Shown in pieces: positions 8,593 through 53,387 of a DNA stretch of 64,000 bases. The notes below the pieces were generated by a model, which did not search any database, was not told the DNA's origin, and saw only the letters and a program-made list of their open reading frames with translations. Origin of the DNA: Candidatus Pacearchaeota archaeon (GTDB lineage Archaea; Nanobdellota; Nanobdellia; Pacearchaeales; GW2011-AR1); assembly GCA_038885615.1 (NCBI GenBank), contig JAVZZP010000001.1, positions 198,646 through 262,645 of the forward strand, read 5' to 3'. A program made the translations under genes and the position numbers. Each line of letters begins with the position of its first letter. Positions within the stretch are counted from its first letter, which is position 1.

Positions 8593-10092
8593 TCAGCACC
8601 TTTCAACGCTGCTTGCTTTTTTAACTTCTTCTATTGCAGGCTTATTTTTTCCAAAGAACTCAATTGCTTCTGCTAACTCTTTATGGGTTTTCGCATATTC
8701 TTCAATAGAAATTCCTTTTTGATAGGCTTCGCATGCCTGGACTAAGGCTGTTGCGCCCACTCTCGTTCCCTTAGGATGGGCATGAACTCCTGCCCCCATT
8801 GTAGTAATGAAATCGACATTCCCCATAACTTCTATGAAAGGTTTAAGCTTTGTCGGATTTAAGCCGCCTGAAATTATAGGGCAGCATTTTTTAATTCCTC
8901 GCCAAGAATCATCTTCAAGAATAACATGGTGGGCTAAATCTTCGTGAACAATTTTTATTAAGTCCTTGTCGTTTTCAGGAATTTTTGTCCATTCTTGTTC
9001 AAAAAAATGACCTTTTGATTTAAAATATTGAATTCCGTGAGCTGCAACAATATCTTCTTCTGGGGAACCTTTCATTTTTCCTACTCCTGCTGTACCAGTG
9101 TGTATTCCGGAAGCTCCTGCAAGACGAGCAAACTTAGATAAAACTAGAACACTAAATCCAATAGGATTTTCAGGCCGAGTAAATCCGCCGTGACCTGCTC
9201 TGTGAAAATGTATAAAAACATCGGGATATCTTCTTCTTAATGTTTGGACTGCCATCCATCCTGCTGTGATTCCATCGATTAAAAAAGCATAACTTCCTTT
9301 TTCAAAACCAGCATTTCTTATTAGTTCGCAACGCCTTATCATTTCATCAAAATCTGCTGCCGAGACATTAAAAGAATGAACTTTTTTTCTTCCAGTTTCT
9401 TTTACTGCTTTGTCCATCGCTTTTTTAACATATTGAACCATTTTATCATAAGGACAAAAATCTTGATCTGCTTGCGGTTCATCGTTTTTTACAAAATCTC
9501 CGCCCCCAACCCAGAAGTCATAGCAAACCTCGGCATATTCAGAAGCAGTTAAACCCATTTTTGGTTTGATTATTGTTCCTAAAATTGGTCTTCCATAAAC
9601 ATTAAGATATTTTCTCATATCATCTAGAGTATAAGAAGGTCCGTCGTATTGTTCTAACATCGCAGGAGGAAACCAAACATCTAACAATTTTAAGGCAGAA
9701 ACTTCTTTTATTCCTAGAATATTTCCAACGAGATAAGTCAAAATATTTTGTACATTTCCTTTTCTATCGAATAATCTCCAAGGATAAGCAATCCAGACGA
9801 GATTTCTTTTTAAGTCAATTTGATAAACAAGAGCGTTTAATTCTCTTGAAAAAGGAGTTTCTGTATTTACTTTGAAATTCGTTCCTGTTGAACTCTCAGC
9901 TGCAACTTCTGCTGCTGCTTGCAAAATATTAAGTTTTCCACCAGGAATCAAATGAAAAACAGCAAGAAGATAATTTCCATTTCTAGGATCTTTTAAGTCC
10001 AAATTTACATACGCCTGTTGATGAGGATTTAAACTAGCAAGAATTTTTTTTATTTGCGCAGTTTGAGATTTATTAGAATTTTTTTTAACCAT
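8593..10092 (-). CDS. rbcL: ribulose-1,5-bisphosphate carboxylase large subunit, form II/III-like
   Basis: GGGDFVKNDE with the carbamylated Lys and Mg ligands; HRAGHGG; SGGLNP...GAGVHAHPKG...GA.A..QA. At 499 aa it is consistent with II/III-type enzymes carrying an insertion. Confidence 0.9.
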   Translation of the reverse strand: MVKKNSNKSQTAQIKKILASLNPHQQAYVNLDLKDPRNGNYLLAVFHLIPGGKLNILQAAAEVAAESSTGTNFKVNTETPFSRELNALVYQIDLKRNLVWIAYPWRLFDRKGNVQNILTYLVGNILGIKEVSALKLLDVWFPPAMLEQYDGPSYTLDDMRKYLNVYGRPILGTIIKPKMGLTASEYAEVCYDFWVGGGDFVKNDEPQADQDFCPYDKMVQYVKKAMDKAVKETGRKKVHSFNVSAADFDEMIRRCELIRNAGFEKGSYAFLIDGITAGWMAVQTLRRRYPDVFIHFHRAGHGGFTRPENPIGFSVLVLSKFARLAGASGIHTGTAGVGKMKGSPEEDIVAAHGIQYFKSKGHFFEQEWTKIPENDKDLIKIVHEDLAHHVILEDDSWRGIKKCCPIISGGLNPTKLKPFIEVMGNVDFITTMGAGVHAHPKGTRVGATALVQACEAYQKGISIEEYAKTHKELAEAIEFFGKNKPAIEEVKKASSVERC

Positions 10093-10187
10093 TTTACCTC
10101 TTTTAATTTTTTAAGAGAAGGAGGTTTATAAGGGTTTTGTATTCTCTGTTAACAAATTCTTAAAAATTCAGTTAAATGATATAAATT

Positions 10188-11120
10188 ATGAAACTTTTTG
10201 TATTTGGGGTTACGGGCGATTTATTTAGAAGAAAAGTTTTGAAAGCACTATCTGAAATAAAAAACTTGGAAATAATTGGTTTAACTAGAAAAAATAATGT
10301 CGAAAATAAAAAAGAAAAGCTTGAATATCTTAAAATATCATTTGAAAATGAAAAAGTTTTTTGTGAAAGATGTTCGAAATTTTTTTCTAAAAGCGAAATA
10401 AATTATTTTTATATTTCTCTTCCGCCAGATAAAATTTTTGAAGCCATTAATTACATAAACGACATAAAAAATGAAGGTTACAAAGTAAGAATTTTGATTG
10501 AAAAACCCTTTGGAGCAAATTTAAATGAAGCTTTAAAGTTAAAAGATTTTATAGAAAAAAATAATCTTATAGAATATGTATTTCTAGCAGATCATTATCT
10601 TTTCAAAGAGGGTTTTCTCTTAAATAAAAATAAAAAACCAAAAAAAGTTTCAATCGTAAACTTAGAAAGTGTTGGACTAGAAGGAAGAACTTTTTATGAT
10701 TCTATAGGGGCATTAGGGGATATGGTACAAAGCCACTTTTTTAATATGCTAACTTTTCTTTTTGGAGAAAGTTTTATTGAAAGAACAAAAGTAAAAGAGC
10801 TAAATTTGGGGCAATATAAAGATTACACAAAAGAATTAGGAAGAGAATCTCATACTGAAACCTATGCTAAATTAGTTCTAAAACAAGAGAATAAAGAAGC
10901 ATTTTTAGAAACAGGTAAAAAATTTGAAGAAAAGATTAGTTTTCTGGAGATTGACGGGGAAAGATTTGATTTGACGGCTGGAAAAGATCCTTATTTATTA
11001 ATGTTTGAAGATTTCTTCCAAGGAAAAAAAGAAAATTTTCCTACAATTGAAATGGCAATCAAAAACTGGAAAAAAATTGAAGAAATAAAAAAGATAAAAA
11101 CAAATTTAGAGATTTATTGA
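10188..11120 (+). CDS. glucose-6-phosphate dehydrogenase-like protein, shortened (310 aa)
   Basis: FGVTGDLFRRK (NADP-binding), EKPFG, DHYLFKE (as in RIDHYLGKE), EGRTFYDSIGALGDMVQSH (GGYFD...RDMMQNH), SHTETYA (S.TETFA). About 150 aa of the C-terminal domain are missing. Confidence 0.6.
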   Translation: MKLFVFGVTGDLFRRKVLKALSEIKNLEIIGLTRKNNVENKKEKLEYLKISFENEKVFCERCSKFFSKSEINYFYISLPPDKIFEAINYINDIKNEGYKVRILIEKPFGANLNEALKLKDFIEKNNLIEYVFLADHYLFKEGFLLNKNKKPKKVSIVNLESVGLEGRTFYDSIGALGDMVQSHFFNMLTFLFGESFIERTKVKELNLGQYKDYTKELGRESHTETYAKLVLKQENKEAFLETGKKFEEKISFLEIDGERFDLTAGKDPYLLMFEDFFQGKKENFPTIEMAIKNWKKIEEIKKIKTNLEIY

Positions 11121-17467: not shown

Positions 17468-18466
17468 ATGAGCATAATTATATTTTCATTAGTTATTAGT
17501 TTTATAACTTGTTTTATTTTTCTAAAATTCTGGATAAGAAAGTGCCATTATCTAGGGATGCTCTGGGAAGATATGAATAAATGGAAAACACCAAAAAATG
17601 TTGCTTCTTCCGGCGGGCTGATAGTTTTGTTTTCTTTTTTAATGGGGGTCTTCTCTTATGTTGCTCTAAGAACTTTTTGGGGCGTTGAAGAAAATACTTT
17701 AATTTTCGCTTCTCTAATGACGGTTGTTTTAGCTGGATTTATTGGCTTTATAGACGATATGCTTGGTTGGAAAAAAAAGGGTCTCTCTAAAAGAGCCAGG
17801 TTATTCGCATTATTAATTGCAGCAGTTCCTTTGATAGTAATAAACGCCGGAGAAAAAACAATAAATTTGCCTTTTCTTGGGATTGTGAATTTTGGAATAT
17901 TTTATCCCTTGTTTTTAATTCCTCTTGGAGTTGTTGGTGTAACAAGTGTTTATAATTTTCTGGCAGGTTTTAATGGTTTAGAAGCAGGTTTAGGAGTTTT
18001 AATTTTAAGTTTTTTGAGTTATGTTTCTTATGTTAGCGGAAATCCTTGGCTTTCTGTTGTAGGAATAACGATGGTTTTTTCTTTACTTGCTTTTTTAATA
18101 TTCAATTGGTGTCCAGCTAAAGTTTTCGGAGGGAATATTCTTACCTATTCTATTGGAAGTTTGATAGCAACTATGGCTATAATGGGGAATTTTGAAAAAA
18201 TAGCATTTATTACTTTTATTCCTTTTATTATTGAAATGATTCTCAAGTTAAGAGGAAAACTTGAAATTCAATCATTCGGCAAACCGAACAAAGATGGTTC
18301 TCTTTCTTTAAAGTATGAAAAAATCTGCGGCTTAACTCATTTTGGAATTTGGTTCCTTTCTAAGTTTAAGAAAAGAGTTTATGAAAAAGATGTTGTTTTG
18401 CTTATACTTTTTATTGAATTTATTTTTATTGGAATTGCGTTTTTGTCGTTTAAAGGGTTGTTTTGA
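17468..18466 (+). CDS. glycosyltransferase family 4 UDP-GlcNAc:dolichyl-phosphate GlcNAc-1-P transferase (AglH/MraY-WecA superfamily)
   Basis: FIDDMLG and VYNFLAGFNGLEAG motifs; about 10 TM helices. Confidence 0.8.
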   Translation: MSIIIFSLVISFITCFIFLKFWIRKCHYLGMLWEDMNKWKTPKNVASSGGLIVLFSFLMGVFSYVALRTFWGVEENTLIFASLMTVVLAGFIGFIDDMLGWKKKGLSKRARLFALLIAAVPLIVINAGEKTINLPFLGIVNFGIFYPLFLIPLGVVGVTSVYNFLAGFNGLEAGLGVLILSFLSYVSYVSGNPWLSVVGITMVFSLLAFLIFNWCPAKVFGGNILTYSIGSLIATMAIMGNFEKIAFITFIPFIIEMILKLRGKLEIQSFGKPNKDGSLSLKYEKICGLTHFGIWFLSKFKKRVYEKDVVLLILFIEFIFIGIAFLSFKGLF

Positions 18467-18505
18467 ATAAGGTAGATTTTTAAATCCTCTTAAATTATAA
18501 AAAAA

Positions 18506-21256
18506 ATGGCAAAAAAGAAAGAAAGCGAAGAAATAAAAGAATTCTTAAAAAATTTAATAAAAAATCAAAAATTTCTTTGGGGAGTAACAATTCTTATTTT
18601 TTTAGTAATTCTTTATAGCTCTGTTTCAATAAGATTGAGTAATGTTCCAATTCTAAAAGATCAAACAACTGGAAAATATACTTCAAATGACTTAGACTCT
18701 TTGTATTTTTATAGAATAGCAGAAACAAGGTTAAAGCTAGGTTATTTACCTGAATTAGATGAACTGAGAAGTCCTGGTTACAATATAGAGTGGATTCCTG
18801 AACTTATCGATGATTATTTAATCTGGAACTATAAAATATTAAGAATTTTTAATCCCGAGATAACTTTTGATTATGCGGCAACAATTTCTGCACCAATATT
18901 TTTTGCTATAGGATTAATTTTGTTTTTCATTCTTTCTTATTTATTAACAAAATCAAAAATCGCTAGTTTAATAGGAAGTGCTTTTTTAGCTTTTGCTCCA
19001 GGTTTTTTATTTAGAAGTATTGCTGGTTTTTATGATCACGACCATATAGGAGTATTTGCGATTTTTGCCTTAATGATTGGGCTTTATTTTTCTTTAAAAA
19101 ACTATGAAAAAAATTGGAAAAATTCTTTATTGTATGGGGTTTTATGCGGTTTTTTAACTGCTTTGGTTTTAGTTTCGTGGGGCGGAGCAATAACTTTTGT
19201 CTTGGTTTTCTTTCCTTTAACTATGCTTTTACATTATTTATTTAATTCTGAAAAAAAAGAAAATTTTTTCTTGTTTTATTTTATTTGGATTGTTTTTTCT
19301 GTTATTTTTACTCCAATTCTAGGAAGCAAAGCAGAGTATATGTATTCCAGGTTTTTAGATAGTCAGGGAGTATTAGTTTTGTTTGTTTTTGTTTTTTCTA
19401 TTATTGATTTTCTTTTTTTGAAGTACAAAGAAAAAATAAAATTTTTAAAAATTAAAGAAAATTATTTTCATTTTTATTCTCTTGGGGTTAGTGCTATTCT
19501 TGGAATTATTGGTTTGGTTGCAATAGGAAAACACCCTATTCAAATGTTTAGAAGGGCCTGGGCGACATTAATTTATCCTTTCTTTGGGGATTTTGGTGGA
19601 AGACTTGGAACCACGGTAGCTGAAAACGCTCAACCGCACTTAGTTGATTTAATAAACCAAAATGGGCAGATATTGTTTTTATTTTTTCTTATTGGTTTAA
19701 TCTTTGTCTGTGCTAATCTAAGTTTAAATTCTAAGAGCATAAAAACCAAAATAGCTTTTTCTGGATCAAGTATGCTGTTGCTTTTTGGAATTCTTTTTTC
19801 AAGAATTTCTGACAGTAGTTTGCTTAATGGAGAGAATTTTATAAGCCAGGCGCTTTATGCTATTAGCGGGGTTGTCTTCTTAACTTTCTTATTTTATATT
19901 TCTTCAAAAGAGAGGTTTAAGATTTCGATTGACGAAGTAATCTTGTTTGCTCTTGCTGTAACTGTAGCTATGAATGCGAGGGCAGCTATAAGAAGCTTTT
20001 TCTTAATAACTCCTTTTATTTGTTTGATAGCGGCCGACGGAATTTCAGAGTTTATAAAAAGAATAAAGAAAAAAGAAGACAAAGAAATAAAATACATTTA
20101 TTTTAGTGTTGTTTTAATAACAATAATTTTATCATATGTCTATATTTTTGGCGTTCCTTTTGTCCAAGGAAATTTAAGCTTCGGAATTTATGAAATTTCA
20201 AAAATCCAAGCATCTAGAATTGGGCCTTCTGCAAATATTCAGTGGCAAAATGCGATGAAATGGGTTAGAGAAAACACAAATGAAAAAGACATTTTTACTC
20301 ACTGGTGGGATTATGGTTATTTTATACAAACTTTGGCCAACAGGCCAACCGTAACAGACGGGGGGCATTCTGGCGGAGACCACACAGACCATTATAACGG
20401 AAGATATTTATTGACAACTCCAAATCCAAAAACAGCTTTAAGCTATATGAAAACTTGGAATGTTTCTTATTTGCTAATTGACCCAACCGAGATGGGAAAA
20501 TATGGTGCTTTCTCAAAAATAGGAAGCAATGATTCTTGGGATAGAGTTTCAGCGGGAATTTTTGGAGGTCCGTTAGATGAAAGACAAACTCAGGAAACAT
20601 CAAAAGGAGAAATAAGGGTTTATCAATTAGGAGGTTGTGTTGATGGAGATATTTCTTTTGAAACAGATAATGGCTCAAAAGTTTTCATTCCAGGAATAAC
20701 TGTAACAAAAACACAACAAATGGTTTGCAATGCTTATGTTGCAGGAGTTATTGTTGAGATTGAAAATTTAGGAAATTTCAGTTCTATAAAACAGCCAACA
20801 GCAGTTTTCTTTTATAATAACAAACAACATAGAATCCCAATAAAACACATTTACAGAGATGGAGAAATATTCTCTTTTGAGAAAGGCATTGATTCTTTGA
20901 TTTATTTTATACCTTTAATAGATGAAAAACAAGGAAAAATCGTTGATAGCGGTGCGATAATTTATCTATCTCCACGAACATTTAATAGCTTAATGGGAAG
21001 ACTTTACATTTTAAATGATCCTTATAACGAATATCCTACAATAAAAAAAGCTCATTTTGAGGATGATCCTGTTGTTGCATATTTCAAGCAGTTTTATCCC
21101 GGTTTAAATGAATTTATTTGGTATCAAGGAATAAGAGCTCCTCTAAAAATATGGAAAGTTGAATATCCCGAAGATACGCCAGTCTATAAAGAATTTTTAG
21201 ATCCAGACTACTTTATTAAAAATGGATTTGGGGGTATGGATAAATTTTTTGAGTAA
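18506..21256 (+). CDS. aglB: archaeal oligosaccharyltransferase AglB/STT3
   Basis: WWDYGY motif (THWWDYGYFIQ); 13-TM N-terminal domain plus a large C-terminal soluble domain. Confidence 0.9.
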   Translation: MAKKKESEEIKEFLKNLIKNQKFLWGVTILIFLVILYSSVSIRLSNVPILKDQTTGKYTSNDLDSLYFYRIAETRLKLGYLPELDELRSPGYNIEWIPELIDDYLIWNYKILRIFNPEITFDYAATISAPIFFAIGLILFFILSYLLTKSKIASLIGSAFLAFAPGFLFRSIAGFYDHDHIGVFAIFALMIGLYFSLKNYEKNWKNSLLYGVLCGFLTALVLVSWGGAITFVLVFFPLTMLLHYLFNSEKKENFFLFYFIWIVFSVIFTPILGSKAEYMYSRFLDSQGVLVLFVFVFSIIDFLFLKYKEKIKFLKIKENYFHFYSLGVSAILGIIGLVAIGKHPIQMFRRAWATLIYPFFGDFGGRLGTTVAENAQPHLVDLINQNGQILFLFFLIGLIFVCANLSLNSKSIKTKIAFSGSSMLLLFGILFSRISDSSLLNGENFISQALYAISGVVFLTFLFYISSKERFKISIDEVILFALAVTVAMNARAAIRSFFLITPFICLIAADGISEFIKRIKKKEDKEIKYIYFSVVLITIILSYVYIFGVPFVQGNLSFGIYEISKIQASRIGPSANIQWQNAMKWVRENTNEKDIFTHWWDYGYFIQTLANRPTVTDGGHSGGDHTDHYNGRYLLTTPNPKTALSYMKTWNVSYLLIDPTEMGKYGAFSKIGSNDSWDRVSAGIFGGPLDERQTQETSKGEIRVYQLGGCVDGDISFETDNGSKVFIPGITVTKTQQMVCNAYVAGVIVEIENLGNFSSIKQPTAVFFYNNKQHRIPIKHIYRDGEIFSFEKGIDSLIYFIPLIDEKQGKIVDSGAIIYLSPRTFNSLMGRLYILNDPYNEYPTIKKAHFEDDPVVAYFKQFYPGLNEFIWYQGIRAPLKIWKVEYPEDTPVYKEFLDPDYFIKNGFGGMDKFFE

Positions 21257-21259
21257 AAG

Positions 21260-21601
21260 ATGGAAAAATATCTTCTCTATTTATTGGTTCTTTTTTGTGC
21301 TTTGCTTGGTTCATTAGGGCAGACTTTTTTTAAAATAGCCTCAAAAGATTTTTCTTTTAGTTTTAATGGGCTTTTTTTAAACTTTCATTTGATTTTAGGA
21401 ATTATCTTTTATGGAACTTCTGCCCTGCTTTTTGTTTATTCATTGAAATTTGGAGAATTATCAATTCTATATCCGATTATTGCAACTAGCTATATTTTTG
21501 TAACTATTCTTTCTTTTATAGTTTTTAAAGAGAGTTTAAACTTATATAAAATATTAGGTGTTTTAGCTATAATTTTCGGAATTTGGCTCATAACAAAATG
21601 A
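21260..21601 (+). CDS. small 4-TM EamA/SMR-like membrane protein (ArnE/F- or GtrA-like flippase candidate)
   Basis: 113 aa; LGSLGQTFFKIASK motif. Its 3' end overlaps the start of the downstream GT2 gene. Confidence 0.45.
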   Translation: MEKYLLYLLVLFCALLGSLGQTFFKIASKDFSFSFNGLFLNFHLILGIIFYGTSALLFVYSLKFGELSILYPIIATSYIFVTILSFIVFKESLNLYKILGVLAIIFGIWLITK

Positions 21602-22269
21602 AAAAGGTTTCTATAATAATTCCTGTTTATAATGAAGAAAAAACAATAAAAAAAGTTTTAGAAGATGTTTTAAAACTAAAATTAAAAAAAGAAATAATCG
21701 TAATAAATGATGGAAGTAAAGATAATACCTTAAAAGAATTAAGAAAATTTAGTAAAAAAATAATTGTTGTCTCTTATAAAAAAAATAAGGGAAAAGGATA
21801 TGCATTAAGAAAAGGAATAGAAAAAGCAGTAGGGGATTTTATTGTGTTTCAAGATGCAGATTTAGAATATAATCCTAAAGATATCCCCTCTTTAATTAAA
21901 GAGTTAGAAAAAGAGAAAGTTGTTTATGGTTCTAGATTTTTAAAGAAAAATAAGAAAGGTTGTTTAGCAAATTATTTAGCTAATATTTTTCTTTCTTTTT
22001 TGACTTCTTTATTTTATTGGCAAAGAGTAACTGATATGGAAACAGGATATAAAGCATTTAGGAAAGAAGTTTTAAAAGAATTGAATCTTGTTTCGGATGG
22101 GTTTGAAATAGAGCCAGAAATAACCTCAAAAATTTTAAAAAAAAGAATTAAGATAAAAGAAATTCCAATAGAGTATCTTCCAAGAACAAAAAAAGAAGGC
22201 AAAAAAATAAAATTTATTGATGGAATAAAAGCTGTTTTTGCTTTGATAAAATGGAGAATAAAAAATTAA
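21583..22269 (+). CDS. GT2 polyprenyl-phosphate glycosyltransferase (GtrB/DPM1/ArnC-like)
   Basis: IIIPVYNEE, DGSKDNT and QDADL (DXD) motifs. Confidence 0.8.
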   Translation: MAHNKMKKVSIIIPVYNEEKTIKKVLEDVLKLKLKKEIIVINDGSKDNTLKELRKFSKKIIVVSYKKNKGKGYALRKGIEKAVGDFIVFQDADLEYNPKDIPSLIKELEKEKVVYGSRFLKKNKKGCLANYLANIFLSFLTSLFYWQRVTDMETGYKAFRKEVLKELNLVSDGFEIEPEITSKILKKRIKIKEIPIEYLPRTKKEGKKIKFIDGIKAVFALIKWRIKN

Positions 22270-23759
22270 GAAATAATTCTAAAACCTTTTATCTCCCAAA
22301 GGGTTGCATTTATTTCTCTATCTCTTAATTGCTTCTCAAAAGTTTTTATCTCTTTTGCTTTCATTTCTAATTTAACTGGAAAACCTTGTTGTGTTTGAAC
22401 TTGCAAAACAATTTTACCTTCTTTTGGATAAAAAGGATCAACTAACCATGAATGAAGATTATCTGTAAAAAAGTAAATGGTATTATTTGTCGAAAGGAGA
22501 TAATTAAAACCACTTCTATAATCTAAAATATTTTTGTCTTTAATAAAAGTTGTATAAACAACCCATTCTGGAACAACCAAAACAGCATCTTTTGGAAGAT
22601 TTTGAGAGGAATATTCTGAAATTTGTTTTATTGGGTCGTAAAAATTAAATATAATTATTTGATCTTGCTTAGGTAAAAAAACAAAAATTTGTTCGAAAGC
22701 ATATAAAAGAGTAACTAGAAAGACTATCAGATAAAAGTATTTTTTGTTTATTTTTTTTAGTCTGTTAAAAATAAAAACAAAAAATAAGGTTGAAAAAAGA
22801 ACCATAATTATTAAAACCTCACAATAAAATCTTAAAGATCTTGACCACCACCATATATGTAACAAAGTATAAACTACAAACCAAACAAAAAAGGTTGCCA
22901 ACATCTTGTTTTTATATTCTTTAAATAAAAAGATAATAAACCCTCCAATAAAAAAGATAACAAAAAAAACTCCTGCATCTTTTAACAAAAACAAGTATTC
23001 TAAAGTATGTTGAAATGTAATTCCCGTATCTCCAGAATTGTAACTATTAGCAAAAGGATTCCCAAAAACAATAAAATTTCTTAAAAACCAAGGGCCTAAA
23101 ATTAAGATAGCAATACCTATAGCAATAAATGTTTTTTTAGAAAAGAAGAAATCTTCAAAATCTTTTTTTCTTAAAAACATATAAAAAGCGATTGGAAAAA
23201 TAAGTAAAAGACCATCATAGCGAATTAATGCTGAAAAAGAAAGACATGCTGTTGCCGGAATTATTAAATTTCTTTTTTCGTAGGATTTTATAAATAAATA
23301 AAGACCGAGTGTAGAAAAAAACAAGAAAGGTATTTCAGAACAAATTAAAGTTGAATTTGCAATAAATATTGAATTGAGGGTAATTAAAAAAGAAGAAACC
23401 ATACCGCCAAATACACCAAAAAGTTCCTTTCCTATGAAGAAAGAAAGAATTATAGAAATAACTGCAAAAAAGTATATTAAGATAATGCCCAAATGCTGAT
23501 TGTTAGAAAGAAATAGTGAAAAAGGAGTTAACAAGATAGGAAGTCCTGGAGGGTATTGTGCATGAGGGTAATTACCATCTAAAGTGTATCCTTTTCCTTT
23601 AATTAAATTTTCAGATAATCTAACATACCAAAATGCGTCTTGACTTGCAGTTGAAGACCAATTAATAAAATAATAAACCCAAATTACTGAAAATCCTAAA
23701 ATAAATGATAAGAGAAAAAAATACTCTTTTTTAATAACTTTAGCAGTTTTATCTTTCAT
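22266..23759 (-). CDS. GT-C fold membrane glycosyltransferase (ArnT/PMT family 39-like)
   Basis: 497 aa with about 12 TM helices. N-terminal region resembles the PMT_2/ArnT family. Confidence 0.55.
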   Translation of the reverse strand: MKDKTAKVIKKEYFFLLSFILGFSVIWVYYFINWSSTASQDAFWYVRLSENLIKGKGYTLDGNYPHAQYPPGLPILLTPFSLFLSNNQHLGIILIYFFAVISIILSFFIGKELFGVFGGMVSSFLITLNSIFIANSTLICSEIPFLFFSTLGLYLFIKSYEKRNLIIPATACLSFSALIRYDGLLLIFPIAFYMFLRKKDFEDFFFSKKTFIAIGIAILILGPWFLRNFIVFGNPFANSYNSGDTGITFQHTLEYLFLLKDAGVFFVIFFIGGFIIFLFKEYKNKMLATFFVWFVVYTLLHIWWWSRSLRFYCEVLIIMVLFSTLFFVFIFNRLKKINKKYFYLIVFLVTLLYAFEQIFVFLPKQDQIIIFNFYDPIKQISEYSSQNLPKDAVLVVPEWVVYTTFIKDKNILDYRSGFNYLLSTNNTIYFFTDNLHSWLVDPFYPKEGKIVLQVQTQQGFPVKLEMKAKEIKTFEKQLRDREINATLWEIKGFRIIS

Positions 23760-23819
23760 AGATTTAATAATTTTGATAAATATATAAAGGTTTTTAAAAT
23801 AAAATTTTTAATATTTTAT

Positions 23820-24380
23820 ATGATAAAAAAAATTAACAAGTTTTTATCTGAAAGATTAAAATTTGTAATTTTAAAAGATTACCCAAGACATTCTGTAAGA
23901 TTTGCTAAAAAACATTTTAATAATAAAGAAATTGTTTGCATAGAAATAGACACTTTTGAAGGTTTTAATGCTAAGATCATTCTAAAAGAGTTAAATGTGA
24001 AAAGGATATATCTTATAGATCCATATGAAGAATATTCTGAATACATAAAATCTGAAAAAGATAAAAACAAAGAAAAATTATCTAAAACAGAAAAAGCTGC
24101 TAAAAAAAGATTAAAAAAATATTCTGATAAAATATTATGGATAAAAGATTATTCTAATAATGCAATTAAAAAAATAAAAGAAAAAGTTGATTTTATTTAC
24201 ATTGATGGAAACCACGAATACAAATATGTAAAAGAATATATGAATAAATACTGGCCTATAGTAAAAAAAGGAGGAATTATGGCAGGCCATGATATTGCTT
24301 CTTTTAGAGGAGTTGGACAAGCATTAATTGAATTTTGTTCAAAAAAAAAGATAGTGCCATATATTTCTAGAACCGACTGA
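23820..24380 (+). CDS. class I SAM-dependent methyltransferase (TylF/Methyltransf_24-like)
   Basis: IDGNHEYKYV...GGIMAGHDI pattern. Confidence 0.45.
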   Translation: MIKKINKFLSERLKFVILKDYPRHSVRFAKKHFNNKEIVCIEIDTFEGFNAKIILKELNVKRIYLIDPYEEYSEYIKSEKDKNKEKLSKTEKAAKKRLKKYSDKILWIKDYSNNAIKKIKEKVDFIYIDGNHEYKYVKEYMNKYWPIVKKGGIMAGHDIASFRGVGQALIEFCSKKKIVPYISRTD

Positions 24381-25270
24381 TGGATAGTGAAAAAATGAAT
24401 GAAAAAATTTGTATTGTTTCAACCGTAAGAAGCAATAAAAAAACAATTGAACAGTGGATAAATTATCATTTAAATATTGGTGTAGACAAAATTTTTTTAT
24501 TTTTAGATAAAAGAAATAAAAATATTAAGGGTTTGATAAATTTAAAAAAGAAATATGGGAAGAAAGTAAGTTTTTTTTATTCTGAAGATCATAAATCAAG
24601 TATAGAGATTAGACAAAGAAAAAATAGTATAAAAGCTTTAAAAATTGCTTTAAATGAAAATTTTGATTGGATATGTCATTTAGATATTGATGAATTAATT
24701 TATTTTAAAGAAAAAATGAAAAATAGTTTATCAAAAGTTTCAAAAAAATATGATTACATCAGGCTTCCGACCTTAGAAGCAGTTATTGAAAAAGAAAATT
24801 ATAAAAATCCTTTCTATGAGATAAAATTATTTAAAAATAACTTTTGGAAATTTTCAAAAATCTTCTTTAATGCCCATATAGCAGGAAAGTCTATAACAAG
24901 AGTTAAACCATACATAATGGATTTAGGTATTCATCAACCAAATTCAAACAAAAAACTTAAATGGACAATACTTCCTTTTAATGCCTATATACTTCATTTT
25001 TACTGTGTTAATTTTAAAGATTTTTTAGAAAAGTGGCGTTGGAGAATAGACGGATCTGGTGTCGCTAGAGAAATGGGCAAAAGAGGGGAAAGAATATTAA
25101 GTTTAATTGACAAAAAATTAAAAAAAGGGAAAATACTTGAATTAAAAGATTTCTATAAAAAAAAATTTATCTCACCAAAAAAATTTAACAATTTATTAAC
25201 TTTATTAAGAGTATACAAAAATATAGAATTAAACAGAAAATTATTCTTATGGAAAAATATGACTTCTTAA
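24380..25270 (+). CDS. GT-A fold glycosyltransferase-like protein
   Basis: HLDIDELI (DXD-like) and a nucleotide-sugar transferase-like N-terminus. Confidence 0.35.
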   Translation: MDSEKMNEKICIVSTVRSNKKTIEQWINYHLNIGVDKIFLFLDKRNKNIKGLINLKKKYGKKVSFFYSEDHKSSIEIRQRKNSIKALKIALNENFDWICHLDIDELIYFKEKMKNSLSKVSKKYDYIRLPTLEAVIEKENYKNPFYEIKLFKNNFWKFSKIFFNAHIAGKSITRVKPYIMDLGIHQPNSNKKLKWTILPFNAYILHFYCVNFKDFLEKWRWRIDGSGVAREMGKRGERILSLIDKKLKKGKILELKDFYKKKFISPKKFNNLLTLLRVYKNIELNRKLFLWKNMTS

Positions 25271-26355
25271 TCGTCGGGGCAGGTCCATCTGGTTGCGTTA
25301 TGGCTGAAAGACTTGCGTCTATAAGAAAAAAGATTTTAATGATAGATAAACGAGACCATATCGGTGGAAATTGTTATGATTATTATGACGATTTTGGTGT
25401 TTTGGTTCATAAATATGGACCACATTATTTCAGGGCAAAAGATAAAGTAGTAATAGATTATTTATCTAATTTTACAGAGTGGATAGAACAGAGATATAAA
25501 GTAGCTGTTTGTATAAAAGGAAAAGTTTATTCTTTTCCTATAAATAAAAAAACAATTGAACAGTTTTTTAATGTAAAACTAAAGGATGAAGAAGAAGTTA
25601 AGAGGTTTTTAGAAGAAAGAAGGCAAAAGGAAATTATAGAACCAAAAAATGCAGAAGAACAAGTTTTATCTCTCGTAGGAAAAGAAATTTACGAAGGGTT
25701 TTTTAAAGGTTATACAAAAAAACAATGGGGAATAGAACCAAAGTTTTTAGATAAAGAAGTTACTGCTAGAATCCCAATAAGGTATAATGAAAATGACGAT
25801 TATATAATAGAAGGTTTTCAAGCAATGCCAAAAGAAGGTTACACAAAAATGTTTGAAAAAATGATTTCCAATAAGAATATTAAACTTATCTTAAGTAAAA
25901 CTTATGAAAATAATTTATCAAAAATAGCAAAAAAAATTATATGGACTGGCCCAATAGATGAATATTTTAATTATAAATTTGGAAATTTACCATATAGAAG
26001 CTTAAAATTTATTTTCGCTTCTTTTAGAAAAGAGTATGTTCAAGAGATCGGACAAATAAACTATCCTGAAGAAGATATTCCCTATACAAGAATAGTAGAG
26101 ATAAAGCATGTAACTAAACAATCATGCCCAAATACCACCATATCTATTGAATTTCCTGAAGAAAGGGGCGAACCTTATTATCCAATGCCGACAAAAGAAG
26201 CAAAAGATTTATACAAAAAATACGAAGAGCTTGCAAAAAAAGAGAAAAATGTTTATTTTTTAGGAAGATTAGCAAAATATAAATACTTAAATATGGACCA
26301 GTGTATAGAGGAGGCACTAAACTTATTTGAGGAGATAAAAAATGAAACCCTCTAA
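25249..26355 (+). CDS. glf: UDP-galactopyranose mutase
   Basis: YDFLIVGAGPSGCVMAERLA (FAD-binding), IDKRDHIGGNCY and VLVHKYGPHYF motifs. Confidence 0.9.
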   Translation: MEKYDFLIVGAGPSGCVMAERLASIRKKILMIDKRDHIGGNCYDYYDDFGVLVHKYGPHYFRAKDKVVIDYLSNFTEWIEQRYKVAVCIKGKVYSFPINKKTIEQFFNVKLKDEEEVKRFLEERRQKEIIEPKNAEEQVLSLVGKEIYEGFFKGYTKKQWGIEPKFLDKEVTARIPIRYNENDDYIIEGFQAMPKEGYTKMFEKMISNKNIKLILSKTYENNLSKIAKKIIWTGPIDEYFNYKFGNLPYRSLKFIFASFRKEYVQEIGQINYPEEDIPYTRIVEIKHVTKQSCPNTTISIEFPEERGEPYYPMPTKEAKDLYKKYEELAKKEKNVYFLGRLAKYKYLNMDQCIEEALNLFEEIKNETL

Positions 26356-27229
26356 AATAAAAATATTAATTGTAGGTCATAAAGATTTTCCGTTTATAAA
26401 AGACGAGATCTATCAACCTATACAGGCAGGGAGAAGTATTTCAAAAATAAAATTACCAAAACCGTGGATAGGAGATGATACTGGAGAGAACATTTCTCAG
26501 AAAAATAGAGAATACTGTGAATTAACGGCGATGTATTGGGCCTGGAAAAATTACAAAAAAATAGGAAATCCGGATTATATAGGATTATGTCATTATAGAA
26601 GGTATTTTGCCCTAAAACCTAGAATCAATAAAAAGAATCAAATTTATTCTATTATTTATTTTTACGGAAAAAAAATTTCTGATAAGTTAAACTTGTTTTT
26701 TTTAATAAGAAAAATATATAGATACTTTTTAAAAAAAAGTATTTCTGAAGAAGAACAAAAGAAAAATTTTTCAGAATTTGAAAAAAATCACCTTGGTGAA
26801 ATAAATAAAATAAAAAAAATAATAGAGGATTATGATATTATTCTTCCAATAAGATATGAAGTTCCAAATCCTCCTATCAAAAATCATTACAATAAGTATG
26901 GAAAGGTGCATGAAGAAGATTTAAAAAAACTTGAATTTATTATAAAGAAATATTTTCCTAAAGAAAAAAAATACTTATCTATTGTACTGAAATCAAAAAG
27001 CGCATATTTTTGTAATCTTTTTATTATGAAAAAAGAAGTTTTTTGCAGATATTCAAAATGGCTATTTGAGATATTAGCAAAAGTTGAAGATTTATTAGAC
27101 CTAGAAAAAAGGGAAGGATATGATAGGCGAGCTATCGGTCTATTGGGTGAGATTCTTTTAAATGTTTGGATAGAAAAAAACAAAAAAAAATATAAAATAA
27201 AAGAAATGCCCGTAATATCTTTTAATTAA
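26342..27229 (+). CDS. DUF4422-family protein (putative galactofuranosyl transferase)
   Basis: MYWAWKNY and YIGLCHYRRYF motifs; immediately downstream of glf. Confidence 0.45.
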   Translation: MKPSKIKILIVGHKDFPFIKDEIYQPIQAGRSISKIKLPKPWIGDDTGENISQKNREYCELTAMYWAWKNYKKIGNPDYIGLCHYRRYFALKPRINKKNQIYSIIYFYGKKISDKLNLFFLIRKIYRYFLKKSISEEEQKKNFSEFEKNHLGEINKIKKIIEDYDIILPIRYEVPNPPIKNHYNKYGKVHEEDLKKLEFIIKKYFPKEKKYLSIVLKSKSAYFCNLFIMKKEVFCRYSKWLFEILAKVEDLLDLEKREGYDRRAIGLLGEILLNVWIEKNKKKYKIKEMPVISFN

Positions 27230-27232
27230 AAA

Positions 27233-28165
27233 ATGACTCGTCTCCTCAATTTCCTTCGGCAAAGACCAGAACTTTACGAAGAGCTTAGAAGAATTTATGG
27301 AAAAACAATTGGTTTTTGGTGGTTGAAAACTCTTTATCTAAAAAAAGTTGGACTTTGGAATGGAGAAAGAAGAATTAAAATCCTGGATGATAAAGAGGCA
27401 AATAAAATAATTATTGAAAAACTTAAATCAAAAGAACCTTTTATGGTTTGCCGTTATGGAAGCACGGAGTTTAGAAATCTCTTCAATGATGAACTTGAGA
27501 ATTTATGCTTTTATTCAGGTTTTTTTCCAAATGACAAAAAACTTCTTCCAAAATTTAGAAGGGTTTATTTTGAAGCATCAAAACAGATTGACTATCTTTG
27601 TGTTTGGAACTATCTAAATCATTTTAATTGGAAAAGAAAATGGATAAGAAATTTTCCGAATATAAAAGCTTTTTTTAGTTTGGGTGTTTTGAGTCATTTA
27701 GAGCCTTGGGTTAAGGCGTTGGAAGGAAAAAAAGTTCTTGTGATTCATCCTTTTGAAGAAACAATAAAAAAACAATATAAAAAGATGGGCAAACTCAAAA
27801 TTCTTCCGAAATTAAAGAAACTTGAAATAATAAAAGCAGTTCAGACTATTGCAGGAGAAAAAGACGAAAGGTTTAAAGACTGGTTTGAAGCTTTAGATTA
27901 TATGAAAAAAGAAATTGACAAAAAAGATTTCGATGTGGCTTTAATAGGTTGTGGTGCTTATGGTTTGCCTCTTGCCGCTTATGTCAAGCAAAGAGGAAAG
28001 CAAGGGATACATGTTGGCGGAGCGCTACAATACTTTTTTGGTATAAAAGCTAAAGCAATAGAAAATAAAGAAAAAGAAATGAGAATAAATAAATATTGGA
28101 CTAAACCGACTGAAGAGGAAAAACCAAAGAATTATAAAAAAATCGAAAATGGGAGGTACTGGTAA
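27233..28165 (+). CDS. GT-D type (DUF1792) glycosyltransferase
   Basis: PFMVCRYGSTEF (RxGDGE-like) and ALIGCGAYGLPLAAYVK motifs. Confidence 0.45.
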   Translation: MTRLLNFLRQRPELYEELRRIYGKTIGFWWLKTLYLKKVGLWNGERRIKILDDKEANKIIIEKLKSKEPFMVCRYGSTEFRNLFNDELENLCFYSGFFPNDKKLLPKFRRVYFEASKQIDYLCVWNYLNHFNWKRKWIRNFPNIKAFFSLGVLSHLEPWVKALEGKKVLVIHPFEETIKKQYKKMGKLKILPKLKKLEIIKAVQTIAGEKDERFKDWFEALDYMKKEIDKKDFDVALIGCGAYGLPLAAYVKQRGKQGIHVGGALQYFFGIKAKAIENKEKEMRINKYWTKPTEEEKPKNYKKIENGRYW

Positions 28166-28689
28166 TGAGAAACAGATATATTGAGATATGGAAAGAAATA
28201 AACAAAGACAAGAAGCCAATCAAAATAATTGATATTGGAGGAAGAAATGAAGAGCTCTTAAAATTTAAACCGAAAGATATTTTGTGCAAATATAAAAATT
28301 TTGATATTAAAAAGGGAGAAGATATAGAAAAAAAAATTAAGGAAAAAGAAAAATTTGATATTATAATTTTCTCACATGTAATAGAACATTTAACAGATAA
28401 AAAAACGGCCCTTATTAATATAAGAAAAATGATGCATAAAAAATCAAGATTGATTTTATTAACACCTAACTCTCTTTCTTGGAGAAGAATAATTTTTTAT
28501 ATATTTAATAAAAGAATGGAGAGTTATGGAGGTTATGAAACACATCTTTGTTGCTTTAATATAGAAGTTTTAAAAAATCTCTTAGAGAGATTTTCATTTA
28601 AAATAGAAAAAATTAAATTTTATGACTTCTTTTTACCTTTTAATTTAGGTAAGTTTTCAGAGGAAATAATGGTTGTTTGTAAAAAATGA
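28165..28689 (+). CDS. class I SAM-dependent methyltransferase (Methyltransf_11/23-like)
   Basis: IIDIGGRNEE ... IIFSHVIEHL ... LILLTPN. Confidence 0.55.
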   Translation: MRNRYIEIWKEINKDKKPIKIIDIGGRNEELLKFKPKDILCKYKNFDIKKGEDIEKKIKEKEKFDIIIFSHVIEHLTDKKTALINIRKMMHKKSRLILLTPNSLSWRRIIFYIFNKRMESYGGYETHLCCFNIEVLKNLLERFSFKIEKIKFYDFFLPFNLGKFSEEIMVVCKK

Positions 28690-29582
28690 AAAACCCAAAA
28701 CACTTTAAACTAACAACACCTGTCCTTTTCCTAATTTTTAATAGACTAGAAACTACAAAAAAAGTTTTTGGTGAAATTAGAAAGGCAAAACCGACAAAAC
28801 TTTATATAGCAGCAGACGGGCCAAGAAACGAGGAAGAAAAAAAGAAAACAGACGCTGTCAGAAAATATGTTTTAAGCCATATTGATTGGCCGTGTAAAGT
28901 GAAAACTTTATTTAGAGAGAAAAATTTGGGATGTAGAATAGCTTCTAATAAAGCAATAAGCTGGGTATTAAATTTAGAAGATAGATGTATGGTTTTGGAA
29001 GATGATACTATCCCTAGTAAGACCTATTTTAGATTTATGCAAGAGATACTTGAATACTATAAAAATAATGAGAAGATAATGAGTGTGGGAGGAGTTAATT
29101 TCTTAAAAAGAGTAAATATAAGTGAGAGCTACTTTTTTTCTAAAGTTCACACTAGCGGTACTGGAATATGGAGAAGATCTTGGCAGAAACAAGATTTAGA
29201 TGTAAAGAGATATTTAGAAATAGAAAAAAGTAATGAATTGTATAAGTATATTCCTAATATTATTGAAAGAGTGTTATGGAAAAAAAGAGTAAAGGATATG
29301 CTATCAAGAAAAGTAGACTCTTGGGGCTATGCTTTTCAGATAGCACATTTTATAAATAGAGGTCTTTGTGTTATTCCAAAAGTGAATCTAATAAAAAACA
29401 TAGGGTTCGATGAAGAAGCAACCCATACAAGATTTAATAAAATAGATAAAAAGTATATTTCTCTTCCTAAATTTGAATTGAAATTTCCATTGGTACACCC
29501 AAAAAAAATTGAAATAAATAAAGAATTAGAGAAAAAACTACTGATTCTTGAGATAAAAAGAATTCTTTTAAAAAGATTATAA
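28686..29582 (+). CDS. nucleotide-diphospho-sugar transferase (GT-A/GT2-like)
   Basis: N-terminus PVLFLIFNRLETT...LYIAADGPR is typical of GT-A enzymes. Confidence 0.45.
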   Translation: MKNPKHFKLTTPVLFLIFNRLETTKKVFGEIRKAKPTKLYIAADGPRNEEEKKKTDAVRKYVLSHIDWPCKVKTLFREKNLGCRIASNKAISWVLNLEDRCMVLEDDTIPSKTYFRFMQEILEYYKNNEKIMSVGGVNFLKRVNISESYFFSKVHTSGTGIWRRSWQKQDLDVKRYLEIEKSNELYKYIPNIIERVLWKKRVKDMLSRKVDSWGYAFQIAHFINRGLCVIPKVNLIKNIGFDEEATHTRFNKIDKKYISLPKFELKFPLVHPKKIEINKELEKKLLILEIKRILLKRL

Positions 29583-29583
29583 G

Positions 29584-30540
29584 ATGATAAAGCAATATCC
29601 TAAAATTTTTTGTAAAAAGATAAGAGTAAAATTAAAAGAAATGTTTTATCGGCCTAAAGCATACATTTTTATAATCCATAGGGTAGAAGAAATAAATAAA
29701 GAAGGCATAAAAATAAACGAAATTCTAAAAATTTCTCCTAAGAGTTTAGAGGAATTTATAATTTTATGTAGGAAGAAAAAATATAATTTTATTAGTATTG
29801 AAAGATTTATTAAAATGTTCAAAAAAAAAGAATTAACTGGAAAAGAGATTATATTGACAATTGATGACGGCTATAAAGATGTTTTTGAAAGAGGGTTATC
29901 AATTCTTGAAAAATATAAAATCCCTTTTGTATTTTATCTGAGCACTTCTTTTTTAGAAAGAAGATTTTTTTATTGGTGGTATTTATTAGAAGAGATTATT
30001 TTAAAAAATGAGGAGGTCATATTTAAAAATAAGAAATACAAATGTAAAAGTCTAAAAGAAAAAAATGCTCTTTTTAAAAAAATTAGGAGAAAGATTGCTT
30101 TCTTAAAAGATGAAGAAGAATTAAAAGACCTGTTCTCTAATTACGAATTGAAGGTTAAAAAGGATTATTATAATTCTCTTTTTCTACAGTGGAAAGAGAT
30201 TAGAGAAAAATTAAAAAACCCCTTAATAACTATCGGGAATCACGGGGATGGCCATTTCTTTTTCAATTCTAAAGAAGAGGAGGAAATAGAAAAGGATATA
30301 ATAAAAGCACAAAATTTAATAAAAAAAAATCTTAATATAAAAACAAAACATTTTTCTTATCCTTATGGGGATATAATCTCTATTTCAAAAAAACATTCGG
30401 AAATAATAAAAAGATTAGGATTTGTTAGTGGAGTTACGACGGAAAATAGACCTGTTAATTACAAAGATGATCTACTTTATCTGCCTAGGATTAATTTAAG
30501 CGAATTTAATTATAAGAAAATTATAAGAAAATTAAAATGA
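29584..30540 (+). CDS. polysaccharide deacetylase (CE4/NodB-like)
   Basis: ILTIDDGYKDV and GNHGDGH motifs. Confidence 0.7.
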   Translation: MIKQYPKIFCKKIRVKLKEMFYRPKAYIFIIHRVEEINKEGIKINEILKISPKSLEEFIILCRKKKYNFISIERFIKMFKKKELTGKEIILTIDDGYKDVFERGLSILEKYKIPFVFYLSTSFLERRFFYWWYLLEEIILKNEEVIFKNKKYKCKSLKEKNALFKKIRRKIAFLKDEEELKDLFSNYELKVKKDYYNSLFLQWKEIREKLKNPLITIGNHGDGHFFFNSKEEEEIEKDIIKAQNLIKKNLNIKTKHFSYPYGDIISISKKHSEIIKRLGFVSGVTTENRPVNYKDDLLYLPRINLSEFNYKKIIRKLK

Positions 30541-31364
30541 AAAAACCATTAATATCCGTTATCATTCCCGTGTATAATAGCAAAAAGTTCTTAAGAAAGT
30601 GCTTAAATTCTATAATTAATCAAACCTTAAAAAATATAGAAATAATTTGTATAAATGACAATTCAAATGATTCTTCCTTAAAGATTTTAAAAGATTATCA
30701 AAAAAAAGACCGAAGAATAAAAGTATTTAATCAAAAAATGAATAGAGGACAGGGTTTTTGTAGGAATCTTGGATTAAGAATAGCTAAAGGAGAGTATATT
30801 TCATTTATAGATTCAGATGACTGGATAAATAAAACATATTTAGAAAGATTATACAAAACTGCAAAGAAAAAAAATGCAGAAGTTGTAATTTGCTCTATGT
30901 TTAATGAGAAAACAAACAAATATTACTACTTCTTTAAAGAAAAAAAGGTTTATTATAATATAAAAGAAAAAATAAAGATTTCTCAAATAGAAAAAAGAGG
31001 ATCTGTATGTAATGTCTTATTTTCAAAAAAACTTCTCAAAAAGAATCATCTTTTTTTTGAAGAAGGTGTTTTTTATGAAGATATTCTTTTTATGTTAAAG
31101 GCAGTATATTTTTGTAATAAAATAGTGACTGTTCCAAAAGCAACCTATTACTATAGGTATAACCCTTCCTCAACAATTAATACTTTAAACGAGAAAAAAA
31201 TAGAGGACCTTTATAATGCTAGAAAAAAAATGAAAGAATTTTCTAAAAGATATAAATTTAGATTAATTTTTAGAATTCACGGAAGTATTCCTGTTCCTTT
31301 TTTTATCTTAAAGTTATTTACTTTACTGAGACTAATGTACTTAAAACATAAATTTAAAAATTAA
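30537..31364 (+). CDS. GT2 family glycosyltransferase
   Basis: ISVIIPVYNSKKFLRKCLNSIINQT, NDNSNDSS and DSDDW motifs. Confidence 0.8.
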   Translation: MKKPLISVIIPVYNSKKFLRKCLNSIINQTLKNIEIICINDNSNDSSLKILKDYQKKDRRIKVFNQKMNRGQGFCRNLGLRIAKGEYISFIDSDDWINKTYLERLYKTAKKKNAEVVICSMFNEKTNKYYYFFKEKKVYYNIKEKIKISQIEKRGSVCNVLFSKKLLKKNHLFFEEGVFYEDILFMLKAVYFCNKIVTVPKATYYYRYNPSSTINTLNEKKIEDLYNARKKMKEFSKRYKFRLIFRIHGSIPVPFFILKLFTLLRLMYLKHKFKN

Positions 31365-31468
31365 GTTTTTCAAAAAGGACGAGAAAAGAATTATTGTTTA
31401 AGATCAGGTAGAAAGATAGGCTAGCCCTTATTTAATAAACCGTATACCAAAAAAGAAAAATTTCTTTA

Positions 31469-32805: not shown

Positions 32806-32889
32806 GAAAGTAATAGTAAAAAAAGTATTAAAAGCCTTTCTAAATTATGAAAACAAAAACCTTAAAAATATTGAAAAAATTTAAGGATT

Positions 32890-50566: not shown

Positions 50567-50570
50567 AGAA

Positions 50571-50651: not shown

Positions 50652-50694
50652 TAAAAAATAAAAGAAAAAAGAAGTTAAAAAGATAACGAAAAAT

Positions 50695-53382: not shown

Positions 53383-53387
53383 TTTTT

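Follow-up and report, generated by a model that had tools for sequence, protein, structure and literature searches.

The stretch of DNA analysed here, hereafter the window, comprises 64,000 nucleotides of contig JAVZZP010000001.1 of a Candidatus Pacearchaeota archaeon (positions 198,646 to 262,645). It contains a divergent pair of open reading frames (ORFs), i.e. a RuBisCO (carboxylase/oxygenase of ribulose-1,5-bisphosphate) of 499 amino acids (aa) on the minus strand and a 310-aa homologue of glucose-6-phosphate 1-dehydrogenase (G6PD or G6PDH, Zwf family) on the plus strand, separated by a spacer of 95 bp. An initial annotation, made from the sequence alone, had drawn attention to this pair and to the unusual shortness of the G6PD homologue, and both the coordinates and the domain matches given below agree with it. 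The short protein, which we call mini-G6PD, belongs to a conserved family that is a previously undescribed short form of a known enzyme; the RuBisCO at its side is of an already known type. The locus is laid out as follows.

8593..10092, minus strand: form II/III RuBisCO large subunit, 499 aa (Pfam, NCBIfam, PDB phmmer, motifs)
8896-9042, minus strand: insertion of the RuBisCO relative to form II, approximately aa 351-399, part of the RuBisCO gene
10093..10187, no strand: divergent intergenic region, 95 bp, with presumed back-to-back promoters
10143-10166, upstream of the G6PD start: spacer motif TCTCTGTTAACAAATTCTTAAAAA, read from the sequence
10188..11120, plus strand: miniaturised G6PD (Zwf-family) homologue, 310 aa
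11195..12559, minus strand: cysteinyl-tRNA synthetase (CysRS), convergent with the G6PD gene, in a syntenic block common to relatives

Sequence, fold and active-site residues of mini-G6PD

The 310-aa protein matches both Pfam domains of the enzyme, G6PD_N (6e-14) and G6PD_C (3e-12), the latter over profile positions 20-61 of 296 only. It is 100% identical to a protein from a Candidatus Pacearchaeota metagenome-assembled genome (MAG) that is annotated "hypothetical protein" by NCBI and whose gene lies on a contig of 279,750 bp. The AlphaFold2 model, calculated from a 54-sequence alignment, has a predicted local distance difference test score (pLDDT) of 95 and a predicted template modelling score (pTM) of 0.92; the lowest confidence is seen at residues 31-50 (pLDDT 75-78). 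When the model was compared with the PDB using Foldseek, all of the top 50 matches (50/50) were G6PDs. In other words, the predicted structure has the G6PD fold, in line with the homology proposed at the outset.

The conservation of the G6PD residues was judged over the alignment of 54 family members, and equivalences to the mechanistic reference, the Leuconostoc mesenteroides G6PD (PDB 1dpg, 485 aa), were taken from alignment. Every residue of the 310-aa protein that was matched to this enzyme is either invariant or shared by 90% or more of the family members. The segments in question are listed here with their L. mesenteroides equivalents.

10206..10235, plus strand: NADP-binding fingerprint GVTGDLFRRK, aa 7-16; K16 corresponds to K21
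10278..10292, plus strand: GLTRK, aa 31-35; R34 corresponds to R46
10362..10373, plus strand: CERC (C59, C62), the remaining half of a four-cysteine cluster of most family members
10500..10514, plus strand: EKPFG, aa 105-109, corresponding to E147-K148-P149
10590..10610, plus strand: DHYLFKE, aa 135-141, corresponding to D177-H178-Y179 and K182; a 14-aa deletion follows directly
10716..10736, plus strand: GDMVQSH, aa 177-183; D178 corresponds to D235 and H183 to H240
10911..10934, plus strand: TGKKFEEK, aa 242-249; K244 corresponds to K338 and K249 to K343
10986..11018, plus strand: DPYLLMFEDFF, aa 267-277, start of the kept C-terminal helix; Y269 corresponds to Y415

The fingerprint follows the GxxGDLxxRK pattern, with T9, D11, L12 and K16 invariant in all 54 members, and the EKPxG motif has an invariant E105, K106 and P107; the initial annotation had named both motifs as kept, and so they are. 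R34 is likewise invariant, and its equivalent R46 is the residue that we take to be the arginine binding the NADP 2'-phosphate. The third motif named there, RIDHYLGKE, is present as LADHYLFKE: D135, H136 and K140 (the equivalent of K182) are invariant, other residues stand in the R-I and G positions, and Y137 corresponds to Y179. Here the earlier claim of a kept catalytic His/Lys holds for the motif itself and fails for the role of the histidine. The histidine of DHYL corresponds to H178, which we take to bind phosphate, while the catalytic general base is H240, i.e. H183 of the window protein. This residue belongs to the DMxQNH motif, found here as DMVQSH, of which D178, M179, Q181 and H183 are invariant in the family. 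E160 corresponds to E216. Towards the C terminus K244 and Y269 are invariant and K249 is present in at least 90% of the members; we assume that their equivalents K338, Y415 and K343 make the contacts of the C-terminal domain to glucose-6-phosphate (G6P).

A cysteine cluster is present in the Rossmann domain of most members (alignment A1, columns 95-126), in the region where the AlphaFold2 model is least confident. Its first pair (C-x3/4-C) is present in about 49 out of 54 members and its second pair (C-x2-C) in 32-36 out of 54. The first pair is gone from the window protein and its closest relative by way of a 14-aa deletion. The cluster may be either a zinc site or a redox switch.

The mini-G6PD is about one third smaller than a canonical G6PD. 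Approximately 170 residues are missing; their loss is divided among six or more internal deletions, which leave the C-terminal helix in place. Compared with the L. mesenteroides enzyme, the Rossmann domain of the mini form is shorter by about 35 aa; 14 aa are gone right after K182-E183 (DHYLGKE) and about 21 aa behind the catalytic helix of H240; about 56 aa of the sheet (residues 353-408) and about 20 aa of the C-terminal tail are absent as well, and there are two smaller gaps of 5-8 aa (about 13 aa in total). The initial annotation had described a loss of about 150 aa from the C-terminal substrate-binding sheet; the amount was right and the geometry was wrong, the deletions being scattered along the chain. 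Between the family profile and the Helicobacter pylori G6PDH (PDB 8i37; residues 9-413 of 428, E 1.6e-45) the alignment is end to end. This 428-aa enzyme is about 115 aa longer than the mini form, and three parts that are missing from the latter are present in it: the segment behind DHYLGK, the loop that follows the catalytic helix and some 40 residues of the sheet.

The deleted sheet segments also favour a different reading, i.e. a dehydrogenase with the G6PD/Gfo-Idh-MocA fold whose substrate is not G6P but, for example, another sugar phosphate. The same reading is favoured by scores far under the zwf equivalog cut-offs (given below) and by weak Pfam matches to the N- and C-terminal GFO_IDH_MocA domains. 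However, the equivalents of the catalytic and substrate-region residues H178, Y179, K182, E216, D235, H240, K338, K343 and Y415, with their roles in binding phosphate and sugar, are conserved, and genes for 6-phosphogluconolactonase (pgl) and 6-phosphogluconate dehydrogenase (gnd) follow the short zwf gene (mini-zwf) in the bacterial operons described below. We therefore regard another substrate as improbable. Membership of the 310-aa protein in the Gfo/Idh/MocA family itself was considered and rejected, as the Pfam GFO_IDH_MocA scores are under the gathering cut-offs. Gfo/Idh/MocA oxidoreductases such as GenD2 (6nor) and myo-inositol dehydrogenase (3cea) share 10-17% identity with mini-G6PD and lack the EKPFG, DHYLxK and DMVQxH motifs that mini-G6PD has.

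Extent, phylogeny and selection of the short family

A search of 5.8 billion proteins gave about 85 clusters (at 90% identity) of homologues 310-370 aa in length, with 38-82% identity to the 310-aa protein. They originate from MAGs of Pacearchaeota, Nanoarchaeota and "Woesearchaeota" and from a few members of the bacterial Candidate Phyla Radiation (CPR). Canonical G6PDs of 450-540 aa matched the protein at only about 25% identity in the same search. The short family was monophyletic with respect to the full-length G6PDs in 200/200 neighbour-joining (NJ) bootstraps. Related genomes do carry the same short form, for which the initial annotation had suggested a search. In the library of 50%-identity representatives about 25 clusters scored above 300 bits, and they were followed by a continuum of 358-430-aa proteins before the canonical sizes were reached. 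Representatives P0125-P0136 and others match end to end in a single stretch (358-430 aa, 180-255 bits). Since these proteins bridge the mini forms of 310-345 aa and the canonical G6PDs of 450-500 aa, the shortening of G6PD is graded.

The closest relative (locus L088; 82% aa identity, equal length) gave a nonsynonymous divergence (dN) of 0.09 and a synonymous divergence (dS) of 1.1, i.e. a dN/dS of 0.08. The mini-G6PD is under purifying selection. This bears on the possibility, raised in the initial annotation, that the 310-aa ORF is a truncated and decaying remnant of a full-length zwf. The length, about 170 aa below that of a canonical G6PD, and the NCBI label "hypothetical protein" would fit such a remnant. 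On the other hand, the relatives carry short forms of 322-324 aa at the same position, where the remnant hypothesis had looked to a full-length zwf; moreover, the short form is conserved over the roughly 85 clusters, the dN/dS is low, the H. pylori enzyme can be aligned from end to end, C-terminal helix included, and the predicted fold is complete and confident (pLDDT 95). We have rejected the pseudogene on the grounds of same-length orthologues, purifying selection and a complete predicted fold, and find it scarcely credible.

Weaker genome matches (L053-L083) were tried as further short forms and were discarded, since their ORFs of 450-730 aa are canonical enzymes or fusions. One of them, the G6PD homologue of a member of the Dojkabacteria (CPR; L053:7983-10175), is a 730-aa ORF that may be a fusion with another domain.

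The proteins of the family are already labelled G6PD by the JGI pipelines and hypothetical by NCBI. We found no description in the literature of a miniature G6PD in DPANN archaea or CPR bacteria, nor of an operon of thioredoxin (trx), thioredoxin reductase (trxB) and zwf; one Woesearchaeota study names zwf in a figure legend only. [quoted passage not shown] A survey (Spaans et al. 2015, PMC4518329) lists classical G6PDH for 66% of the genomes from bacteria and 0% of those from archaea.

Gene context of mini-G6PD across the family

The gene neighbourhoods were compared in 55 distinct mini-G6PD loci, comprising the window, contigs carrying matches and 47 species-representative genomes. In 48 of these the upstream side is visible, and only these are called informative. 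The ORFs of the 55 loci were clustered without prior labels.

The recurrent arrangement is a same-strand run of thioredoxin, thioredoxin reductase (TrxR), a winged helix-turn-helix (wHTH) regulator and, in the last place, mini-G6PD (14 out of 48 informative loci). The genes are tightly packed, with gaps of -32 to +38 nt. The thioredoxin scores 123 bits against TIGR01068, over the cut-off, and the TrxR 327 bits against TIGR01292, just under the cut-off of 343.45. The redox centre of the TrxR is CATC, and the protein also has a basic (Y/H)R(R/K/Q)xxFx(R/K)AE motif, which by analogy resembles the NADPH 2'-phosphate site of Escherichia coli TrxR. The regulator is Lrs14/Sta1-like. We note that one locus, L039, was counted among the 14 on a TrxR C-terminal remnant in its upstream DNA: about 100 nt upstream of position 8001 translates to AAGDITNNPLKQAITA, the TrxR C-terminal signature, and an intact trxB ORF was not called. 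The remnant could stem from a trxB with a frameshift or from a fusion of trxB and zwf.

The thioredoxin operons have a promoter in common, in which a TATA-like TTTAAATA is directly followed by the inverted repeat TACTGCTAT-N3-ATAGCAGTA. Within the repeat CTG...CAGTA is invariant, and a CAGTAC half-site is found upstream. The Lrs14/Sta1-like regulator of the operon itself probably has its operator in this repeat.

L001:8283-8370, L003:6319-6406, and loci L011, L018, L022, L023, L028, L030 and L034: promoter of the thioredoxin operon

Plastid and cyanobacterial G6PDHs are regulated post-translationally by thioredoxin. The family described here is similar in that G6PDH, NADPH and thioredoxin appear to be linked physiologically, and most mini-G6PDs have the cysteine cluster in the cofactor domain. 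It differs in that the link consists of operon membership with trx and trxB.

The CPR bacteria show a second arrangement. In three of their loci pgl lies within two genes downstream of mini-zwf. In two of these, L036 and L049, gnd comes between mini-zwf and pgl, which makes a compact and complete oxidative pentose-phosphate operon of minimal-size enzymes, and in the third, L005, mini-zwf is followed by pgl. The gene order is that of the bacterial zwf-gnd-pgl and zwf-pgl operons, respectively, but the CPR loci have a miniature zwf and a short gnd of about 300 aa. The short-type gnd products of L036 and L049 (307 aa) score 325 and 307 bits against TIGR00872, over the cut-off of 297.

L036:8001-10796: mini-zwf/gnd/pgl operon of a CPR bacterium
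L049:6749-9631: mini-zwf/gnd/pgl operon of a CPR bacterium

The third arrangement is the one of the window. A form II/III RuBisCO is the divergent neighbour of mini-G6PD in five loci (the window, L004, L006, L084 and L085), and RuBisCO is absent around the other 43 informative loci. The RuBisCO-linked proteins form one terminal clade (168/200 NJ bootstraps, 84%), whereas those linked to thioredoxin turn up all over the archaeal part of the NJ tree, its base included. The thioredoxin operon is therefore the widespread and probably older arrangement, and the RuBisCO pairing looks like derived synteny in one clade.

The spacer between the two genes measures 53-97 bp in this clade and has a conserved GTTAAC/TTAAAAA element. 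The motif TCTCTGTTAACAAATTCTTAAAAA recurs nearly identically upstream of the 82%-identical homologue in L088, L004 has TCTCTGTTTACAAA on the other strand, and GTTAAC together with TTTAAAAAG is present in L006, L084 and L085. The 95-bp spacer of the window presumably has a promoter function. In three of the five RuBisCO-linked loci a gene for a HIT-family nucleotide hydrolase (128-135 aa) is convergent and directly after mini-G6PD.

L006:8956-9348: HIT gene
L084:6972-7358: HIT gene
L085:5276-5683: HIT gene

The RuBisCO of the window is an ordinary, already known form II/III enzyme. The 499-aa protein matches Pfam RuBisCO_large (E 3.9e-95) and passes the form II-like NCBIfam model PRK13475 (648 bits, cut-off 489), while its score against the NCBIfam type III model is under the cut-off. 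Its residues 16-482 align to PDB 8vgs_A (E 2e-281) and residues 17-480 to PDB 5mac_A (E 1e-270), both in phmmer and both without net length difference; form II structures align only up to residue 368-369, the start of the extra segment. In other words, about 465 residues align nearly identically with 8vgs and with the form II/III RuBisCO of Methanococcoides burtonii (5mac), including the segment that form II lacks, and the window protein differs by just about 15 extra residues at each terminus. A form II-like sequence with an extra segment of about 29 aa ahead of the PIISGG strand marks the form II/III type, and the window protein conforms to it. The CPR/DPANN subgroup of form II/III RuBisCO is defined by an insertion of at least 29 aa (Jaffe et al. 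2019, PMC6389311). The active-site motifs were all located (IIKPKMGL, GGDFVKNDEP, HFHRAGHG, GIHTGT, GKM and PIISGG), i.e. KPK, the carbamylated lysine in DFxKxDE, HxHR, GIH, GKM and SGG are in place. The initial annotation had assigned the type, the insertion and the complete set of catalytic residues in the same way. It had also noted that the expected partners deoA (AMP phosphorylase) and e2b2 (ribose-1,5-bisphosphate isomerase) are not in the window, and indeed neither Glycos_transf_3 nor IF-2B domains were found in 35 window ORFs scanned against Pfam, among them all ORFs of at least 280 aa except RuBisCO, the 310-aa protein, methionyl-tRNA synthetase, CysRS, the DNA polymerase D (PolD) large-subunit ORF and a 670-aa ORF. 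Phosphoribulokinase (PRK) was not found in the same 35 ORFs either. Recent transfer of the RuBisCO gene was considered on the basis of G+C content (RuBisCO 36%, window 29%, G6PD gene 26%) and dropped, the difference being too weak to interpret.

Function of mini-G6PD and meaning of the RuBisCO pairing

Taken together, we think it likely that the 310-aa gene encodes a functional NADP-dependent mini-G6PD, that in the family as a whole the NADPH serves mainly thioredoxin, and that the RuBisCO pairing is inherited synteny. The protein would be a G6PD trimmed to the structural core of the fold, oxidising G6P to 6-phosphogluconolactone with the formation of NADPH by the usual His-Asp mechanism, in which H183 and D135 would take the places of H240 and D177 of L. 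mesenteroides. Its main job across the family appears to be to supply NADPH to an NADPH-type TrxR and thioredoxin, with which it shares a tightly packed and probably autoregulated operon in many DPANN lineages, the co-transcribed TrxR being the presumed consumer in most of these archaea. In CPR bacteria it would act as the first enzyme of the zwf, gnd, pgl oxidative pentose-phosphate operon. The divergent RuBisCO pairing would have arisen once, in the Pacearchaeota clade that holds the window. We read it as a local gene order passed on by descent, perhaps together with a bidirectional promoter serving both genes, and not as a metabolic unit. In the lineage of the window the gene would thus have moved beside RuBisCO, and the consumer of its NADPH would be encoded elsewhere in the genome.

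Several observations weigh against this explanation. The 310-aa protein scores 79 bits against the NCBIfam zwf equivalog TIGR00871, whose cut-off is 400.6, and if a classical G6PD is taken to have a full-length beta+alpha domain and a zwf equivalog score, then this protein is not one. The missing 56 or so beta-sheet residues (353-408) are part of the canonical dimer interface, and therefore oligomerisation and kinetics could differ. Neither trx, trxB, pgl nor gnd was found near mini-G6PD in the window or in the loci of its clade; in addition, queries from related loci for Trx, TrxR, wHTH and 6-phosphogluconolactonase, as well as for HIT, gnd, the response regulator and SFM1, had no tblastn match in the whole 64-kb window. 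Finally, the RuBisCO-G6PD pair is adjacent in 5/5 informative clade members despite gene insertions and losses around it, which speaks mildly for a joint retention of the two genes.

This last point also speaks for regarding RuBisCO and mini-G6PD as a functional unit in the clade. In one version the oxidative pentose-phosphate steps would yield ribulose-5-phosphate, from which a kinase would make ribulose-1,5-bisphosphate for RuBisCO; in the other the two genes would be co-regulated from one bidirectional promoter in nucleotide and sugar salvage. The G6PD identity among the five members is only 48-52%, and the neighbouring genes have been inserted or replaced (HIT hydrolase, VTT-domain gene, response regulator) while the pair persists, with its short spacer and the conserved motif therein. 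A link between the oxidative pentose-phosphate pathway, PRK and RuBisCO, which the first version would fit, has been proposed for some CPR bacteria (Jaffe et al. 2019, PMC6389311). However, PRK, like gnd and pgl, was not found in the window or in the loci of the RuBisCO-linked clade, and the same study states that DPANN archaea generally lack PRK (PMC6389311). Moreover, RuBisCO is absent from the other 43 informative neighbourhoods, and because the adjacency is confined to a single terminal clade, one rearrangement suffices to explain it. CysRS and a 185-aa gene are likewise conserved in the same block, so that general synteny accounts for the pairing; CysRS is a member of the shared syntenic block and is not functionally implicated. 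The operator of the thioredoxin operons (ACTG-N10-12-CAGT) was not found in the window. A functional unit is unlikely in our view, less so than the change of substrate discussed above. The initial annotation had envisaged a dehydrogenase feeding or draining the RuBisCO-based salvage pathway, and this is not borne out, given that the adjacency occurs in one clade only and that the recurrent partners of the family are trx and trxB (14/48) and, in CPR bacteria, pgl and gnd. For RuBisCO in general, adjacency within one clade should not be read as evidence of a pathway.

Returning to the preferred explanation of an NADPH-forming mini-G6PD, a functional enzyme of this kind would give genome-reduced Pacearchaeota, Woesearchaeota, Nanoarchaeota and CPR bacteria a defined source of NADPH. 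The operon link to an NADPH-type TrxR suggests what the NADPH is used for, i.e. maintenance of thiol redox state and, by extension, ribonucleotide reduction. The family also shows how small the scaffold of G6PD can become with the checked active-site residues kept, which is useful for enzyme engineering and annotation.

A more far-reaching combination can be put forward as a speculation that, taken as a whole, we would sooner doubt than accept: the first widespread archaeal G6PD of the Zwf type, a module that makes NADPH for thioredoxin, a minimal G6PD core and a promoter shared with RuBisCO. Here trx, trxB, the wHTH gene and mini-zwf may constitute a dedicated, self-regulated DPANN module under one palindromic operator. 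The mini-G6PD would be the minimal catalytic core of the G6PD fold, with the size of a Gfo/Idh/MocA enzyme, and this core could stem from extreme reduction or be a relic of an ancestral form linking both superfamilies. In the clade of the window the gene may have left the thioredoxin operon to share a bidirectional promoter with RuBisCO, by which the supply of NADPH could be coupled to nucleotide-ribose salvage.

The remainder of the window is archaeal in character, as seen from Orc1/Cdc6, the PolD small subunit, AglB/STT3, SecDF and an intron-like tRNA; its G+C content is about 29%. The tRNA match, 132 nt at 38499-38630 on the plus strand (Rfam 41 bits, uncalled by ARAGORN), would fit an archaeal tRNA with an intron. 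Positions 17468-35288 are taken up by a large cluster for glycosylation and surface polysaccharides, with genes for a GT4 glycosyltransferase, AglB/STT3 (916 aa), several GT2 enzymes, a PMT-like transferase, UDP-galactopyranose mutase, DUF4422, a GT-D-like protein, a polysaccharide deacetylase, WecG/TagA and a Wzx-like flippase. Orc1/Cdc6 (52168-53382) precedes the PolD small subunit (53388-54902), after which comes an ORF of 1145 aa, probably for the PolD large subunit, and the lowest G+C content of the window (23.6%) is that of the 2-kb bin 50001-52000 just upstream of Orc1/Cdc6; we regard 50001-58329 as a candidate replication-origin region. A tyrosine recombinase at 42405-43286 on the minus strand (Phage_integrase, E 1e-52) is either XerC/D-like or part of an integrated element.

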